Assembly: GCA_002269645.1 (NCBI GenBank)
Contig: NIVC01002923.1
Location: 7,933-71,932 of the forward strand
Origin: Macrostomum lignano
Lineage: Eukaryota
Direction of reading: 5' to 3'
DNA length: 64,000 nt
In this document: piece after piece, positions 9,402-19,377 of the stretch
How the letters are laid out: the number at the start of each line of letters is the position of its first letter
Position numbering within the stretch: the first letter of the stretch is position 1
Program-made: the position numbers and the translations under genes
Notes under the pieces: generated by a model
Databases searched by the model: none
What the model was told of the DNA's origin: nothing
Seen by the model: only the letters and a program-made list of their open reading frames with translations

Positions 9402-9972
9402 TCTCTATCTAAATATAAAGTCTCAACTCTGTAACTCAATCAGGAATGAAACTGTTAGACAGTTTCTAATCTCTCCTTTCTCCTCTTTCATCTCTACTCT
9501 TTTATCTTTTCTTTCTTCTCCCTTCTCTATCTTCTATAATTTATTTTACATTCTCTCTCCTTTTCTCTTTTTCTCTTATCTCTTCTCTTTTATATTTTAT
9601 CTTATCTCCTTTCAACTCTTATCTAGTTTGTAGCCATGAGCTGGATTCTTTATCTGGCCCTTGGAGATAAAAGTCTGCCAGTGCCAACTGCTGCTTCAAA
9701 AGCCAGTTCTGGGACATAGTACTCATGGGCCATTCCAAGGGTCATTAGCTAACTGCTTTGATCACATAATCTTTCTGGCCAATTTTGAATCCTAAGAAGA
9801 ATTTGTATATCTAAAGCTCAATTGTAGCCTATTACTCGAAAAAGCATTTGAATGCCAGATTTGAATGCCAGAAAGATGCAATGTGAGCATTATTCACTTA
9901 CAATTGATGAGTGGACTGCAATTAACAATAGGCGCTTCATGCATATCAATATTCACACAACTGATAAGCAAG
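9402..9972 (+). repeat. Near-identical duplicate of 17332-17901, including a fragment of degenerate hAT transposase
   Basis: Both copies run from TCTCTATCTAAATATAAAG to CTGATAAGCAAG, with about a dozen differences by eye. Confidence 0.9.
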
Positions 9973-10018: not shown

Positions 10019-13000
10019 ATGAATCCCTACCTAAGTAATCCCTACCTAAGTTATCCCAATCCCTATCTTTATCCATATCCCTATCCCTATCCTTATCCAT
10101 TTGCCAGTCTATTTTATCCCCCACCCCCATCTACTTGGATGCCTTATCCCAACCCGTTACCCACACCCCATGCTCCCACCGGCAACCTGGCCAATGCAGC
10201 AACAGCAGCAACAGCAAGAGGACCCGCCGGCCTTTACAGCCGACCTGGAGAAGCTTCTCCAGCCCCTACTAGGCGCCGCGTCTTCGTCGCGGGGGGGGGG
10301 GGAGGTGTCCCTATGGGATATCAAAGAGCGCCTAAACCTTGGACACCCTGTGTCCCATCGGCTAGAAGAAGTTTGTGTCAACGGAAGCTGCAGCCCGCCG
10401 ATGGCTTCCCGGCGGTCAAGGGTGGCAGTTGGGCCCACCACCTTCCCAAGCTGCGCTTATTCAGGGCCGGCAACATTGAAACCAACCCAGGACCCCCCGT
10501 CACACTATGGCAAGGCCTGCTGCGGCAAGCCGCTCCGTGACAGGGCGCTGGTCTGTCGGCAATGCAACCGCGGTTTTCATCTCCAAAGAATCTGCTCTGG
10601 GTTGAGCCGTTGGGCCTCGGACCGCGCCGTGCGCGAGAACACCTGGACTTGTTCCGACTGCTCACGTGGGCCAGTCTCATCCCCGGAGCCACCGGGACAA
10701 GACACCGAGGCCACTGCTCAGCAAGGCACTCCTGTCCAGGCGGAGTCACCGGCCGAGGATCGGAGACTCACCCTGCTTGCGAGGATCAAAGAAGAAAAGC
10801 CTAACTGCGCCAAGTGCAAGAAGACCATCCTGGTGTCGACGGTGATTGCCTGCTGTAACACCTGTGAGGCCTTTTTCCACAATGCATGCACCGAAGCCAC
10901 CAGAGAACAGATTAAGCAAGAAGTCCGCAGGGGCCGCTGGCGGTGTCGTTTCTGTACCGAAGCCCTCACTACCAGTGGAGCTACGCATTCCTCGCCAGAA
11001 GCCGACCCCACGGCCCACAACGAAACGCACCGCGGACGGAAAGAAGGACCTGCCAATAACAAGGGCCTCAAGGTCCTGCAATGGAATGCGGACGGCATCC
11101 GAAACAAAATGGGAGAACTGGAGGAGCTGGTCCAACGCCTCAAAGTTGATGTTGTCATGATCCAAGAATCTAAGCTTGACTAAGTCTCCCGCACGCCAAA
11201 GATCCCCGGCTTTACCACCGTGAGAAAAGACCGACGAACGCTACGTTCCAGCGAGACGTACAAGGGAGGAGGTCTCCTCACGCTCATCCGCCAAGAAATC
11301 CCCTTCCGGCGGCTCAAAGGCTGGAGTGGAGCATACATGCGCAACAGTCGGCCGATCGGGCCGACCGATTTGGCGGCCAACCAAGGAAGTCGCAAAAATG
11401 CCCACCCGAAAAAACACCAAGTAGTAGTACTAAGTAGCTGACGAGGCATTTTGGCTTTATAAGACTGTTAAGTTACTCCTGCCGTTTACCCAAAGTTGCG
11501 TTAATTTTGCTTTCGGGTTTTTTACATGTAAGTCGCATTTTTGGCCAAAAACTACGTCGCATTTTTGTTAAAACTAAGTCGCACGGCCGACCGAATTTTG
11601 GAGGTTGCGCATGTATGGAGTGGAGGCACGGTGGAAGGCTGCCGCATCGTGATCAACCTTAGTGTCAAAAAGCGTCTCGTGCTCACTAACATTTACCGGC
11701 CGCCCATCAGGCGCAATGCTGGCGCCGACTGCCGGGAGCACCCGGACATCGATCTCTGGCTGAAGCCGCACCAGCGCGAGATTATTGCTGGCGACTTTAA
11801 TCTCCATCACACGACCTGGGGTAGTCTGCCTGGCCAGGGGCCCGAGGGCGCCGAACAAGCCAAAGCCCTGCTGGAGTGGTGTGACAGTAGTGGGTATTGT
11901 GTCCTCAACTCGGGCTCCCTCACCTGTCTCGATCGCCGCGACGGTCTCGATCGCCGCGATGGTGGAGAGAGTGCCCCCGACATCAGCCTCGCTAGCGCCG
12001 GCCTCGACGACCTCTGCTCGTGATAGGCCCTTGACGAACTGGGCTCTGACCACAAACCCATTCTCATCACTGTGGATAGCGACCGCGCTAGCACCGACCA
12101 GAAGATTTGTCTCACCTGGGCCTGGCAGAAAGCTGACTGGAACAGCTACCAGGCCCAGCTCGAAGACGATAGCATTGGGCTCAACAAAGGCACTGTCAAG
12201 CAGCAAATCCAATGCCTCTGCTTTCGTATGAGTAAGGCGGCCAAAGCTTGCATTCTTCAGACTGCAGGCCTTCTTCAGACACCTGCTGGACTCGTGGCTC
12301 ACAGCCTGGCTCACGGTCTTTAATCGGTGCTGGTCCCTAGGGCACTGCCCGGAAGTCTGGAAGAAGGCGGTGATCGTCCCACTTTTGAAAAAGGGCAAAG
12401 ACCCAGCCAACTGCAGCAGCTTCCGGCCTGTTAGTCTCACTTCCATCTGTGTTCAAATCATGGAGCGCATTGTGATGGACCGGCTCATGCACTGGATCGA
12501 ACTCAACAACACGCTGCAACCGTGGCAAGCTGGTTTTCAGAGAGGGCATAGCTGCGAAGAACAAGTGGCGCGTCTGGTCCAGGAAATCCAAGACCTCCTT
12601 GCCCGTATCATGGATGAGGGAGTCCCGGGTCGCATGGTGCACTGGTCTGCCAGCTTCCTGGAGGGGCGCCAGATTGCCGTCCGCGTGGGCGACACGATCG
12701 GCAAATGGAAGCCGCTTAAGGAGGGGGTGCCGCAGGGGGCAGTGTGCTCGCCGGTGCTCTTCCTCCTGTACATTAACGACTGGGCAGACTCCCTGGTCCC
12801 AGATGTCAACTACGCCGGCTTTGCTGACGACCTGGGCGTCTGGGCCTTGGGCAGCAACACCCAGCAGATTGCGGAGCGCCTTCAACTGGCCATCGATCGC
12901 ATCGACGCCTGGGCCACAGATCTCCGTATCGATCTCAATCCCCTCAAAATTGAATGCTGTATCTTCTCGAGAGACCGCAGGGACCGCGACCATACCCTCA

Positions 13001-14570
13001 ACCTGTGCATCCGAGGCCAGCAACTCCCAACCAGGCAGGAGCTGCGCTACCTGGGTGTCTGGATCGACAGCGGCCTGCTCTTCAAGCGGCAGTCCGACGA
13101 AGTTGCCACCAAACTGCGCCGTCGTTGTGCTGTCCTGCGTGCACTGTCGCATCGCGAATGGGGGTGGGACCGCGCCACGCTTAGGACGGTGTATAAAGCC
13201 GTGGTGGAGTCTGTGGTTTGGCATGCGGCTGCAGCCTGGATGCCCTGGCTCTCTCAGACTCGCCTCAATGACCTGGACAAAGCCCAAAAAGTCGCTCTGA
13301 GTCTTGTCTCTGGTCTACCAAGCTCGACTTCTAGCGTGGCCATCTACCGTGAGGCCGATTGTGTGCCCATCAGCCTGGAGGCCAAACGACGAGCGCTGGT
13401 CACCGTCGAAAAGGCGCTCCGGCGGCCCGAGGCGGACCCCTGGAGGTCCAGGTATGAACTCAGGACCCCCACCCGGCTCAAAGCCAACCGTGGCCTCCGC
13501 GAACAAGCCCACTCAGTGCTCAACGAGATCCTCCCACATAGCCGTCTCCCGGGAGCCTGGGTCAGAGCCCCGCCGTGGGACACACTCAGCGGCTCGGACT
13601 GGCTGAGGCTCTATCCGCAACTGGTGAGACCGCTCCGTAAAACCGACAGTCAGCACACCCACGATCCGATCATCGCCGACACCTTCCGAGAACGCCTGCC
13701 CAGTACCTGCTACTTCACGGACGGCTCCGCTTCGGGTGGCACCGCCAACGGCCAACGGTGTCGCCGCCTGGATTCTGTTTGACCAGGAGATGGGCACGAT
13801 CATCCGGGGCGGCCACTCTGCAGCGGGCAGATAGTGCAGCTCCTTCGAAACCGAGCTCCGCGCGCTCCGAGATGCCGTCGTGGATGTCATCCAGCAGGAC
13901 GTTGACACCGCCGCCTTCTCACCGATAGCCAGGCGGCCGTCAGAGCACTGATAGCCGACCGGCCCACCACTAACGCGCTACTCAAAGACCTGAAGGCCCT
14001 TCTTCGGCAAGCAGCTGGCCGTTACGTTCTCACGATCCAGTGGATTCCCGGCCATGCTGGCGTGGCTGGTAACGAGTTCGTCGATCGCGAGGCCAAAGCC
14101 GCAGCTCTTCTGGATCAAGCCCAAGTGGCCATCTCGCTCGAAGCAGCCAAGCGGTTTATCTACCGCCGTCTCGAGTACCTTCCGGACCTGACCGGCCATC
14201 TGAAGGAGACTTACCAAGGACGCATCACGCACCATAACGGCAGCCGGCGTGAGCAAGTCCTCGTTGCGCAGGTGAGAGCTGGACACTGCCCCTCCTCGGC
14301 CTACTACGCTAAGCGCATCGGCAAAGCTCAGCTGGCCGAGTGCAGGCTTTGGGGGCTCGAGGTAGACCAATTCCACCTGGTCCACTGCCCTGCGATCGAT
14401 GTCGCCCGAAGACAGAACAGCATTTGCAATCTGAAAGACCTAGCCGATGGAAACCTGGTGGCGCGGCTCCTGGAGTGGATCGACTGGACCCCGCTCTAGA
14501 CGGCTGCACTCCGCACTCAACAACAACAACAACAACAACAACAGCAAGAGGAGCAACAACAGCAACAGCA
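10019..14570 (+). mobile_element. Decayed APE-type non-LTR retrotransposon (Ingi/I group): leader, 2A-like peptide, 2 PHD fingers, APE endonuclease, RT, RNase H, C-terminal Cys/His motif, (CAA)n tail
   Basis: Motifs: GNIETNPGP; CGKPL..CRQC..FHLQRIC..WTCSDC; CAKCKK..CNTC..FFHNAC..WRCRFC; LKVLQWNADGI..VMIQESK; YRPP; IIAGDFN; SDH; IVPLLKKGK..FRPVSLTS; GVPQGAVCSPVLFLLYIND; FADD; FTDGS; QWIPGHAGVAGNEFVD. It has several stops and frameshifts, a MITE insertion, and a deletion of RT motif A (DxxKAFD is absent). Confidence 0.93.
11332..11617. mobile_element. 286-bp MITE (hAT- or P-like) inserted in the LINE endonuclease region
   Basis: Perfect 14-bp TIR CATACATGCGCAAC/GTTGCGCATGTATG and 8-bp TSD GAGTGGAG (11324-11331 and 11618-11625). 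Removal restores the frame LKGWSGGTVEG. Confidence 0.93.
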
Positions 14571-15460
14571 GAGCGGTTCTCAAAGACGGCAGCGGAGGGG
14601 CTGGCATCATCATAGACAAGGTCACGCCGCCGCTCACTGCTGCGCTCTCTGACAATATCACCACGCTGCGCATTCCAGCGGGGCGGCCCTGCTCATCGAC
14701 CGCTGCCGAGCTAGTCGCCCTGCTGGCGGCTATTGACTGGCTGTGCAAACTGGACGAACCATGGCACCACGCCCGCATAGCCACTGACAGCCGCAGCGCG
14801 CTGCAAGCCATCACAGGCGAATCCCGGTTGCCGGCCGCCATTAACATCCGGCACCTGCTGGCACACCTCGGGGAGTGCGGCCGCAAGGTGGCTATGATCT
14901 GGATACCGGCTCACTGCGGCCTCCCCGGAAACGAAGCAGCTGATAAGGCAGCTGGTGAAGCCGCAACCATGCCACAGGACAACATGCCGGTTGGCGCCAG
15001 CATCACGAGTAGAGTCCTCCGGAGGCAACTACCGAGAAGGTTCACGCACGACCGGAGCCGCAGGTCTACGGCAGGGAAGCCAGGGTGCAGCGAGCGAGCT
15101 TCGGAAATTGTACCGAAGCGCTAAGCCTGCGCCGCTTCCGCTCCGGCCACTCGATCCAACTTCAAGCTTACAACCTGCGCATCGGACGCGCCGACGACGG
15201 GCTGTGTCAGGCCTGCAAACTGGAGCCGGAAACGGTCGACCACCTCTGCGACTGCCCGGCCACCTGGACGCGCAGGCAGCAGCTCGGTATTGGCGACGCC
15301 GCCGACTTGTGGGCCAAGGAGCCAAGCGCGCTTGCTTACTGGAATTGGTTCCTCACCAGATTCGCGGAACGTTAGACTGCACCGGTGGCATATACACACA
15401 CGCACACACAGCAACAGCAACAACAACAACCGCAACAGCAGCAGCATCAACTGCAGCTAC
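14570..15460 (+). mobile_element. Second, 5'-truncated LINE of the same group (RNase H, C-terminal Cys/His motif, CA/CAA/CAG tail)
   Basis: DGSGGAG..AELVAL..TDSRSAL..WIPAHCGLPGNEAAD, then FRSGH..CQACKLEPETVDHLCDCP, stop at 15375 and a microsatellite tail. Confidence 0.88.
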
Positions 15461-17599
15461 ACTCGCGTTCGGCGCGGACTAGATTTGTGAGAGATGAAAT
15501 GCGCGCACGTAAGTTTATTGTATTACGAGTTTGTTTAGAGGGATAGTTTTGACTAAATCAGTTTTTGTTTGACCACTCATTTCGTGTGAAATGAATATAT
15601 GTTACAAAACTATTATGCTTTCTTTTCACAGTTGGACTCTGCCGATTCTGCCTGCGGCGCGGCCACATAGCGGCAGACTGCAGAAATCTCTGTTGCCACC
15701 ACAGCCACAGCCGCAGCCGCAGCTGCAGCACTGTTGTTGACGTTGAAGAATGAAGCATTGAATTAAGAATTTTTTAATTTCTGTGCTGCTTAGCTATTTG
15801 ACTAAGTCTGTTCTCTGTCTGTCATCTATTTAAGATGAAAATTAAAACTATGACTAAAATGCTGAATTAGAAGCACTAGGCAAATTTAAGTAGCTAATCA
15901 TTTTTGCTGCAAAGAGGCTCTTTGCCTTATGATAAATCCATTTTAATACGAGTCTTTTTTGCTTTTTTTGGTTCATCAAACACAAAGGAGCCACAATGTC
16001 ATACATTAAAGAGGCACCATGTAAAACAAAAGAGCTGCCATGTCAAACACTAGAGGCTCCATGTCAAACACTAAAGAGCCACCATGTCAAACACAAAGGA
16101 GCCACCATGTTGTACATAAAACAGCCACCATGTCAAACATAAACATGTCAAAACAGATAATTAAATATAATAAATCACAAAAATAATTAAATGTATATAA
16201 ATTGTGCAATGGGCTATATTGTTGGTAAGCCTTCTGCAAGAACACCATACTCGTACAAGGCATATGTGCAAAGAAATATTGTGCTAAAATATTCAGAGTT
16301 GTTTTATTGGTCAATGTACAAAACTAATTTAACAAAATTCACTCTTTATTTCGGCCTTTGTTCACAAGAATTCTATTTATTTATTGACCAAAAATATACA
16401 TTTACTATATTATATATAAAAAACTGCTAAAATTTACTTTTTTGTTTCTCATGGATTTTTTGTGTTAATAATAAAATATAAAATATAATAAAATACACCA
16501 ATTAATATTTTTTTGCTGCTACACATTTTTGAAATTATAAAACCAATAAAAGATTACAGTCAACAGTGGGAAATAATTGAGGCCCTTTTAAGTCCTTTAT
16601 TGCTGATATCAGATTTTGTATGAGTTGCAGTCACCACTGAATTTAGCTACTAGGTTCATGCATTATTAACCTGACATAAAATGGAGATTTGATGTAAGGT
16701 GAAAGAAACTTTAAAGAGTTTTATGCATATGCATTAAATCAAGATTCAAGAATCAATATCTATTTGTTGTCGCCATTGTAATTTTTCATAAAATCTGTTT
16801 CAAGGACCACTGGAGTACAAAATATTGTTCATTTTAGTACACATCATGCAGTTTATTCTATATGTATAGTTATGGTAGGGCATTAATATATTAAACAACA
16901 ATTTTCAGCGCAAATTAAATTCAATGCAAGTTGTCATTAACCAATGTGTATGTAAAAAAATTGACTAATCTCTAGGTTACTATTTAAAAAATGACTTAAC
17001 TGACCATGTTTTCTCTTTTCATAGATAAACTTTTCTTTCTATGTGGCAAGTCTACTTATCTTTGTTTAAATACTTAACACTGCATTCGTTTGGATGTTAC
17101 ATTGTGTTGTACAAATGTGCATGAAATGTGTAATTTTTATGCTATATAATTCTAATAAAAAAATCTCAAAGAGATTATAGCAACCAAATAACCTTTTGTG
17201 AGTATAGAAAAGATTTGTATATTACATTTTCCTCAACATATTTAATATGTAACAATAAGAAAACTTAATAAAACTGTTTCAATTTGTCTCTTGCTTATTT
17301 GGCACCCCAAAGGGTGGGCATAGATTGCTAGTCTCTATCTAAATATAAAGTCTCAACTCTGTAACTCAATCAGGAATGAAACTGTTAGACAGTTTCTAAT
17401 CTCTCCTTTCTCTTCTTTCATCTCTACTCTTTTATTTTTTCTTTCTTCTCCCTTCTCTATCTTCTATAATTTATTTTACATTCTCTCTCCTTTTCTCTTT
17501 TTCTCTTATCTCTCCTCTTTTATCTTTTATCTTATCTCCTTTCAACTCTTATCTAGTTTGTAGCCATGAGCTGGATTCGTTATCTGGCCCTTGAGATAA

Positions 17600-19377
17600 A
17601 AGTCTGCCAGTGCCAACTGCTGCTTCAAAAGCCAGTTCTGGGACATAGTACTCATGGGCCATTCCAAGGGCCATTTGCTAACTGCTTTGATCATATAATC
17701 TTTCTGGCCAATTTTGAATCCTAAGAAGAATTTGTATATCTAAAGCTCAATTGTAGCCTATTACTCTAAAAAGCATTTGAATGTCAGATTTGAATGCCAG
17801 AAAGATGCAATGTGAGCATTATTCACTTACAATTGATGAGTGGACTGCAATTAACAATAGGCGCTTCATGAATATCAATATTCACACAACTGATAAGCAA
17901 GTTTATCATCTTGTACTAATTTGTATCAAAGGTTTAATGATTGCAGAAATCTGTATGCTACTTGTGCGAACTCGACTTCAGGAATTTGGAAGTGTATAAT
18001 ATAGAGCACGACATAGTTGTTGCCACAACTGATGGCGCTTCTATAATAGTCAAATTTGCTAAGTTGCTTAATGTTGAACATCAGATATGCCATGCTAATG
18101 GTATACATCTGGCTACCTGCAATATCCTTTATGCAAGAAATGCTGCAGATACTAGCAATGATATTTTTTCTGCAAATGAGAATGTTGCTGCAGTTGCAGA
18201 CTTCACCAATGATGATTTTGAGCAAGGTGCTAGTGAAGATGAAGAAACTGACACTGATGAGACTGTCAACCAGAATGTACAAGACAATGGTGATGATGTC
18301 CAATTAGATTATGCCATTGATCAAGTTTTTCAGCAAATAAGAAAGTGCATTTGCATGTTTTAACAAGCCCCAGTCCAAAATGACACCTGCAGATGTTTGT
18401 CCAGGAGGAACTTGGACGGCCACTATGCCTATTACTCAATGTAAAAACACACTAGAATTTGTTATTAATAATAGTTGATTGGTTCGTATTGCTACTAAAG
18501 CCTCTTCAGAGCACTATGTTGCACTTTGGCATTAAAGCATGATTCAACTGAAGTGACATTGAATGATTGAGGCAACTGAGTGCCCACTGAAGCCATTGGA
18601 ACTTGAAGTTCATCAGGGCACTTTCTCAACGAGACTGCACACTCATTCAGGCAGATGCCTCCATCAATTATGCCATCTCAGAGCTATGATAACAGGGAAC
18701 TAGTCTGTCCATTTGTTTGCTGGAAGCATTGCACAATTGTTTTTACAACATCGAAGTAGCACCATGTTGGCTGCACAGTTTCCTCATTGAAATGGCAGAG
18801 TCAGAAGTGTAGCTAAACTGAATGCAGCAAAGTACACACTTGTTTCAATTGCTGAAAGACTTGGTCTGCTTCAGGACAATGTTGAAGCACAATAGGTCGA
18901 GAACTAACCTGATGTAAAATTATATAAAAATTATATAGTTTGTATATTACTATTTTAGTATACTATTATGGACATTTATTCAAGCATACAAACCTTAGAG
19001 ATTTAGTATATTTAGAAGTATAGCAACAGTATAAAAAGTAGGCATTTCTTTTTAACCTTTTTGCATCTACTGACAGAGCCATCTCAATGGAGGAGCAGTT
19101 TGAAGTTGCACTTCGAAATTGCGCAGTGAGTTAAAAGCTGACAATTGTCCCAATACTGATGTCAAGCGCGTGATTGGCTGCAAAATAGATTTTTTGCGTA
19201 CCACTGGCCAGTGTGGCAGTGCTTGACAGGCTTTATACTGCCTTGCGCTCTATTCTACCTACTAGCCTTGACGCCAAATGTGCCTTCTCTGCAAGTGGCA
19301 TGCTACTGACAAAGCTAAGCTCACGCATGGCAGACACAATGCTCTCAAAATTGTGTTTGCTGCAGTTTTACTTTTAA
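17600..19377 (+). pseudogene. Degenerate hAT-superfamily transposase
   Basis: SLTIDEWTAINNRRFMNINIH (first catalytic D), TTDGAS..CHANGIHL (second D and CxxH region) and a C-terminal ILPTSLDAKCAFSASG..LCLL dimerisation-domain-like segment. Many stops and frameshifts. A possible element end GGGATTGGCAAAACTTAG lies near 20520-20540. Confidence 0.85.

Follow-up and report, generated by a model that had tools for sequence, protein, structure and literature searches.

A LINE of Macrostomum lignano with an N-terminal 2A motif, a predicted split-P1 HDV-like ribozyme at its 5′ end and a reading frame phased with its CAG/CAA target

N-terminal 2A sequences are known from single-ORF APE LINEs, namely: Ingi-1_AC, CR1, Crack, L2 and Rex1 (Odon 2013; PMC3708506). 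According to that study, Ingi-1_AC, an Ingi element of animals, has high 2A activity, the D of the motif is an important determinant, and CR1, Crack and sea-urchin elements have a PHD placed after the 2A and before the APE; a 2A ahead of PHD-APE-RT is thus already published (PMC3708506). L1Tc combines a 2A with a 5′ HDV-like ribozyme (PMC3185411, PMC3383444, PMC4035085), and Ingi is counted among the clades with 5′ ribozymes (PMC5786205). Where translation of single-ORF LINEs starts and what the N-terminal 2A does in them are described as open questions (PMC3894237).

The window analysed here is a stretch of 64,000 nucleotides of M. lignano DNA (contig NIVC01002923.1); a named protein of this species agrees with the genome at 98%. 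It carries one copy of a 2A-bearing LINE within a host gene, and the features of this locus are as follows:

10019..10222, + strand: 5′ part of the first coding exon of the host gene (Pro/Tyr-rich, then polyQ), from the empty paralogs L147 and L148
10211..10222, + strand: 5′ copy of the 12-bp target-site duplication; the same 12-mer is at 14541-14552
10223..10334, + strand: predicted HDV-like ribozyme at the element 5′ end (covariation, core descriptor)
10226..10262, + strand: two abutting hairpins in the 5′ strand of P1, a predicted four-way junction (covariation, folding)
10335..10441, + strand: rest of the open leader
10442..10495, + strand: 2A/StopGo-like peptide with a D-to-N change (pattern match, translation, sister comparison)
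10493..10498, + strand: C run at which the frame from 2A to PHD1 is lost (6 C in this copy; sisters have 10 or 11)
10503..10958, + strand: two PHD fingers (PF00628, E 2.1e-6, 2 stretches)
11073..12060, + strand: APE endonuclease, broken by stops and a MITE (PF14529, E 6.6e-9)
11332..11617, + strand: high-copy MITE (14-bp terminal inverted repeats, 8-bp duplication), missing from L037-L039
12388..13065, + strand: reverse transcriptase (PF00078, E 4.7e-21)
13700..14499, + strand: RNase H, C-terminal Cys/His finger and stop (PF00075, E 7.6e-7)
14518..14552, + strand: (CAA)n tail; target-site duplication, 3′ copy
14571..15407, + strand: second LINE within this polyQ tract, 5′-truncated and reaching from RNase H to the tail (PF00075, E 4.5e-9)
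15408..15753, + strand: remainder of the host gene, i.e. polyQ end, predicted intron 15509-15631 and zinc-knuckle exon (paralogs)

The element starts at 10223, the position from which sister copies share sequence, and the second LINE has its own 12-bp duplication (14559-14570 and 15408-15419). Alignment with L037-L039 places one deletion of about 0.5 kb upstream of the RT and another of about 80 nt inside it; the first Cys of PHD1 is changed to Tyr, where the sister contigs differ at 10507. With its stops, the MITE, two deletions and the lost PHD Cys, the window copy is dead. The MITE, which is probably of hAT type, has very deep coverage in public runs. A direct repeat of about 560 nt (9402-9958 and 17332-17887, 97-98% identical) flanks the host gene and both LINEs. 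At 17941-18363 there is an open frame which by eye resembles part of a hAT-type transposase and has no Pfam match.

The initial annotation had seen in this LINE a 2A-like motif, and the motif is confirmed. The translation of 10442-10498 is LPKLRLFRAGNIETNPGPP; a degenerate 2A pattern has a single match in the 64-kb window and none in 100 shuffles, and its D form has 122 exact matches in the genome vs. none for a reversed control. Upstream of the motif is a hydrophobic, leucine-rich helix, LPKLRLF/IRA (compared by eye with the pattern given in 10.64898/2026.06.17.732966). The window copy deviates from the C-terminal GD(V/I)ExNPG/P in having N for D, while the 122 genome matches and both assembled sisters, L003 and L004, conform to it, the latter with GDIETNPGP. 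Two places in the genome match the N form, namely the window copy and its near-duplicate (L002/L037), and the earlier proposal that D is ancestral and N derived is supported. A DNA search gives six matches; apart from the window itself and the near-duplicate, these comprise two independent sisters, one fragment and one distant relative.

The frameshift said to separate the 2A from the PHD-APE frame just after NPGP is also present, and can be located in the C run at 10493-10498. The number of C is 6 in the window, 10 in L003 and L004 as assembled and 11 in D-bearing contigs of public runs X1 and X7; by manual frame assignment, 11 C puts the 2A and PHD1 in one frame. In both runs the D-bearing contig occurs beside a contig identical to the window. 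Since the form with N and 6 C is found in public runs X1, X6 and X7, it is not an assembly error. The N and the frame shift are real DNA, private to the dead window copy and its near-duplicate, and the N is a late private mutation.

The survey covered 95 loci, i.e. 92 of the 122 D-pattern matches plus 3 variants (of 100 matches listed, 8 were skipped as further copies), which fall into 32 clusters. A D-bearing 2A in frame with the PHDs, as anticipated by the initial annotation, occurs in the sister contigs of X1 and X7, and a PHD follows the 2A in frame at 69 of the 95 loci and in 27 of the 32 clusters. An open frame of 1398-1616 codons after the motif is retained at 10 of the 95 loci, from 6 clusters; three copies of family 4 keep 1474 open codons after a canonical 2A, and L039 has an APE-RT-RNase H frame of 1243 aa. 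There is no ORF1, only about 240 nt separating the 5′ end from the 2A. The proposed ancestral single ORF, 2A-PHD-PHD-APE-RT-RNase H, is supported; the leader as a protein of its own is not, since its sequence and its frame through the ribozyme are unconserved. In other organisms, 11 of 16 further protein matches show the 2A-PHD start.

These elements fit the Ingi clade in having a single APE-RT-RNase H ORF without ORF1, an N-terminal 2A and a predicted 5′ HDV-like ribozyme. In an RT tree of 34 rows most of the 2A families group together; its one trypanosome RT (P0015) has a long branch that arises from an open fork, and the tree holds no I, Nimb or Vingi references. Because neither this tree nor three protein searches can fix the clade, we call the element Ingi-like. 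In the search for relatives elsewhere, a metagenome scan with the RT found none. A scan with the 2A pattern gave at least 121 loci, mostly unrelated 2A carriers among the matches listed, and at least two of them pass the ribozyme core descriptor described below, one being a true relative. Contigs of public runs cover the family, and one begins 36 nt upstream of +1 (the run type is guessed to be RNA and may be DNA). A large metagenome group (L160, L165, L171, L172, L176 and others) shows a conserved domain that ends in RWLRxLLLLxGDVERNPGP and is followed by a non-PHD protein.

The elements found here resemble those of PMC3708506: their single ORF has GD(V/I)ExNPGP close to its N-terminus and PHD between 2A and APE. 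They differ in having one to four PHDs together with RNase H, a frame tied to the CAG/CAA target, and full-length 5′ ends without AUG, where PMC3708506 attributes missing starts to 5′ truncation; flatworms are absent from the hosts named in the main text of that study. With L1Tc/ingi (PMC3185411, PMC3383444, PMC4035085) they share a ribozyme in the first bases with cleavage, known in L1Tc and predicted here, before C1, a 2A that shares the frame of APE-RT, target-site duplications with a length of 11-12 nt and, here as a likely reading, short derivatives with internal deletions, whereas the two hairpins that interrupt P1 in many families, the PHD fingers after the 2A, the (CAA)n tail and the CAG/CAA repeat target are different. 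New here are a predicted split-P1 ribozyme, an unconserved, sometimes AUG-less leader in phase with CAG/CAA, and two in-frame insertions in polyQ exons. A literature search that covered most papers by their listings found no description of a hairpin-split P1, of these flatworm elements or of polyQ read-in. Work by Ruminski and by Kojima, both of 2011 and known here as cited by others, may have described ribozymes of animal Ingi elements before.

Several variants were seen in the course of the survey. L009/L104 and L023/L112 (families 18 and 19) have a putative PWWP-like stretch between the PHD fingers after the 2A. In L041:4528-4920 the 5′ 140 nt of the family are inverted beside its 3′ 230 nt, with the inverted piece ending at the predicted +1, as expected from twin priming. 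Upstream of the 2A in L025/L114, L065 and L021/L111 are short ribozyme-bearing pieces with a CAA tail directly before another element; these are probably non-autonomous forms, comparable to NARTc or RIME, that arose by internal deletion.

The element's 5′ end, 10223-10334, is predicted to fold as an HDV-like ribozyme with a split P1. The nested double pseudoknot of HDV can be fitted to it with P2 (10270-10276 with 10328-10334), P3/L3 (10278-10290, with a 7-nt L3), P1′ in the G run 10291-10302, P1.1, P4 (10305-10321), a candidate catalytic C at 10322 and a C-x-A-A J4/2. Among 11 related 5′ ends, 94.5% of the cells assigned to pairs are paired and 15 of 28 pairs show two-sided changes; none of 500 shuffles reaches this, and slid controls pair at 41-53%. 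It should be noted that the structure was hand-drawn from the same sequences, which are related, and that P4 was not counted, so that the covariation is support and no proof. The catalytic C and the AA downstream of it are invariant in alignment A2.

A core descriptor of the fold matches 47 of the 95 loci and 17 of the 32 clusters, and includes all 4 copies of the window family; among the controls it matches 5 of 1900 shuffles and a single one of 1132 coding windows. The 15 clusters that it misses include five (2, 12, 14, 28 and 31) that look HDV-like by eye, and a first descriptor, which required a well-folded P1 insert, missed the window family. Rfam gives no match up to E 10 in 10100-10600, and minimum-energy folding, a method that does not extend to pseudoknots, is no better than for shuffles (z -0.2, -0.7 and -1.4).

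The window family lacks the continuous 6-7 bp P1 of HDV-like ribozymes. Instead, the predicted P1 is split 3+4: its 7-nt 3′ strand pairs with the 4 bases before P2 and with the first three bases of the element, and the two hairpins listed above lie between. In hairpin 1 all 7 pairs show two-sided changes, and the P1 inserts of L044, L063, L070 and L114 fold end to end into two hairpins. An insert of 34-49 nt is present in the window cluster and in at least 10 others; P1 is continuous in families 3, 11, 18, 19, 25 and M (7 bp in related families). The three proximal pairs of P1 are invariant in A2, while across clusters the triplet changes along with its partner (CCC, CCG, AGG). The hairpin 1 loop, TYTAC (10233-10237 in the window; also L070, L099 and L063), is conserved while the stem covaries, and might serve for a tertiary contact or for protein binding. 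L140 (family S) has a 21-nt insert in L3 of the ribozyme and a 2A with S for G before D.

The predicted +1 agrees with the insertion junctions. Target-site duplications of at least 8 bp end there in 45 of 64 copies, most of them in repeats, where the position is little informative; seven are in non-repetitive targets and agree. As in R2 and other large HDV-like ribozymes (PMC3774820, PMC4908430), a P1 of 7 bp would set the 5′ end, the element would be released from a host co-transcript, and peripheral insertions appear to be tolerated. In those ribozymes, as described in the same sources, the insertions lie in J1/2 and P1 mismatches are uncommon and harmful, whereas here a two-hairpin insert would sit inside a P1 strand; the host RNA of R2 is also untranslated, in contrast to the polyQ exons found here. 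If active, a split-P1 ribozyme would extend the range of the HDV fold, and descriptors that require a continuous P1 would overlook it.

The leader, measured from the target repeat to the 2A, is 124-270 nt long in undamaged copies; leaders of 138-270 nt hold the 2A in the Q frame of the CAG/CAA upstream. Its peptide is unconserved, and its sequence, and even the frame in which the ribozyme is traversed, differ between close families. In 37 of the 53 copies that have an adjacent CA[AG] run (the other 42 loci have none) the 2A frame reads this run as Q, with the two other frames accounting for 10 and 6. When a single least-damaged copy is hand-picked per family, 18 of 22 are in phase, and of the remaining four all but one have a leader interrupted by a stop; two families obtained with a different query are in phase in 3 of 5 copies, the other two having ribozyme indels. 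Between them, the segments from repeat to P1′, from P1′ to the catalytic C and from C to 2A show five length patterns modulo 3, all of which sum to zero. A segment shuffle gives p = 2e-5, and the 5′-most segment against the rest p = 1.4e-4, values that are too optimistic because the families are related and the representatives are the least damaged and often in-phase copies. On the simplest reading, ribosomes traverse the ribozyme, coming either from its 5′ end or from upstream.

Two host genes carry such an insertion in their polyQ. In the empty paralogs L147 and L148 a single frame runs from the equivalent of ATG 10019 through the polyQ, which indicates that the element was inserted in a coding polyQ tract. 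The frame starting at 10019 had been taken as the leader of the element; this is rejected, as ATG 10019 lies outside the element and is the start of a multi-copy host polyQ gene. The window copy has a 1-nt shift between ATG 10019 and the polyQ frame. Furthermore, the run of 12 G at 10291-10302 in the assembly has 7 G in contigs of all six public runs examined, so that the open frame from 10019 to the 2A in the assembly is probably accidental; a further X1 contig, from a sister copy, has 6 G. With 7 G the window copy is open from the host polyQ to the 2A, as is L037 as assembled. At L134 (G000:C221:573000-580600) an intact 2A-PHD-APE-RT-RNase H element, with 1407 codons from the motif and M for G before the D of its 2A, is inserted in frame in the exon 2 polyQ of a COMPASS-Shg1-domain gene, of which L130 and L131 are empty copies; this locus illustrates the form that entry of ribosomes from upstream would take. 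The public gene model P0002 annotates this fusion as one protein. Thus, there are two in-frame insertions in host polyQ exons. Elements with a CAG/CAA target also deserve attention, both as tools for insertion and as polyQ-gene mutagens.

The reading that we favour, at a little under an even chance, is that ribosomes enter from the upstream polyQ and that the 2A frees the element protein from the host or leader part. The element would be co-transcribed from a host promoter, and translation of uncut, capped co-transcripts would begin at the host start and continue across the repeat and the stop-free ribozyme sequence. Skipping at the 2A would then yield a protein starting at Pro-PHD regardless of what lies upstream, while the ribozyme, perhaps slowed by the split P1, would subsequently free element RNA with an exact 5′ end. 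Source copies would be only the few that land in coding polyQ. The broader proposal of a LINE lineage without a start codon of its own, which parasitises polyQ exons by a combination of CAG/CAA targeting, a ribozyme open in the Q frame, a 2A and a four-way-junction ribozyme, is more tentative still. That the 2A is a device giving the element protein a fixed N-terminus is likely. The roughly 30 sequence clusters in one genome, with their unconserved leaders, conserved frame, AUG-less families and intact exon copies, form a natural series in which this role is directly testable.

Several points weigh against entry from the upstream polyQ and keep our confidence in it below even. Firstly, the flanks are unbiased: beyond the repeat, at 43 distinct sites, the longest open frame is Q in 10 cases and the others in 15 and 14, with 4 ties; counts for at least 60 open codons are 12 for Q and 15 and 12 for the others, and with an ATG present 8, 11 and 8. 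The test is itself biased against Q by C-to-T decay of CAA/CAG, and six long Q-frame flanks have no Pfam match at the cut-off. Secondly, two metagenome relatives (L215 and L237) with a ribozyme-like 5′ end read the adjacent repeat as Asn/Ser, not Gln. Thirdly, cleavage would have to be slow enough, since a fast co-transcriptional cut would remove the host cap and start. The leader ATGs of ten of the in-phase families, described below, and the M for G in the 2A of L134 count against it as well.

The nearest alternative, which we consider possible and less probable than entry from the polyQ, is an AUG-less, cap-free start on the cleaved RNA near an IRES-like 5′ ribozyme, with the 2A trimming the resulting peptide and the phase following from the fixed junction. 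It would account for the AUG-less families, the unbiased flanks and both metagenome cases, and most families have GD at a distance from +1 that equals 1 mod 3. Cap-independent translation has been proposed for L1Tc (PMC3185411, PMC3383444), and a potential role in translation initiation is ascribed to HDV-like ribozymes (PMC4908430). However, families 4 and 15 have a junction displaced by one base (family 4 with 11-bp duplications), and the frame is displaced with it so that Q is kept. In addition, length changes in the 5′-most segment are compensated downstream, which would confine such a start to the first tens of bases, themselves paired in P1 and the hairpins.

An ordinary leader is unlikely. 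In this model, which follows Odon 2013 and the leader of the initial annotation, an AUG 40-60 codons upstream would serve as start, the 2A would release the leader and mainly lower output, and the phase would be inherited and functionless. The window element does have a sole in-frame ATG at 10313, in the P4 loop and 52 codons before GD/GN, among the 18 in-phase families ten have an in-frame ATG at a distance of 25-60 codons upstream and a further two at 12-21, and published 2As lie 40-80 residues from the N-terminus (PMC3708506). These ATGs, however, are in unrelated places, and length changes upstream of them keep the frame. Six families have no usable AUG: families 4, 13 and 21 have none in frame, and in families 7, 10 and 19 the only one is 2-6 codons before GD, inside the 2A peptide.

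That the N variant and the C run are functional, with a weakened 2A and slippage tuning the expression of this copy, is highly improbable given 2 places with N vs. 122 with D and the stops, MITE, two deletions and lost PHD Cys of the same copy, even though the N + 6 C form is real in three public runs and L037 and L039 have a frame that bypasses the 2A and runs without a stop from the ribozyme into their PHDs. Read-through from the ORF of an upstream sister was considered as a general route and rejected, as the phase of the 3′ tail relative to the stop codon varies among families.

The host gene in the window (10019-10222 and 15408-15753; further copies L143 and L145-L154) is multi-copy and spliced, and encodes a Pro/Tyr-rich part, polyQ and a zinc knuckle. 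The zinc-knuckle exon matches PF00098 with E 0.004, which is under the curated cut-off, and the intron at 15509-15631 is deduced from GT/AG signals and frame. The polyQ of this gene has received two LINE insertions in the window and an independent one in L153. The multi-copy gene may itself be part of a larger mobile unit.
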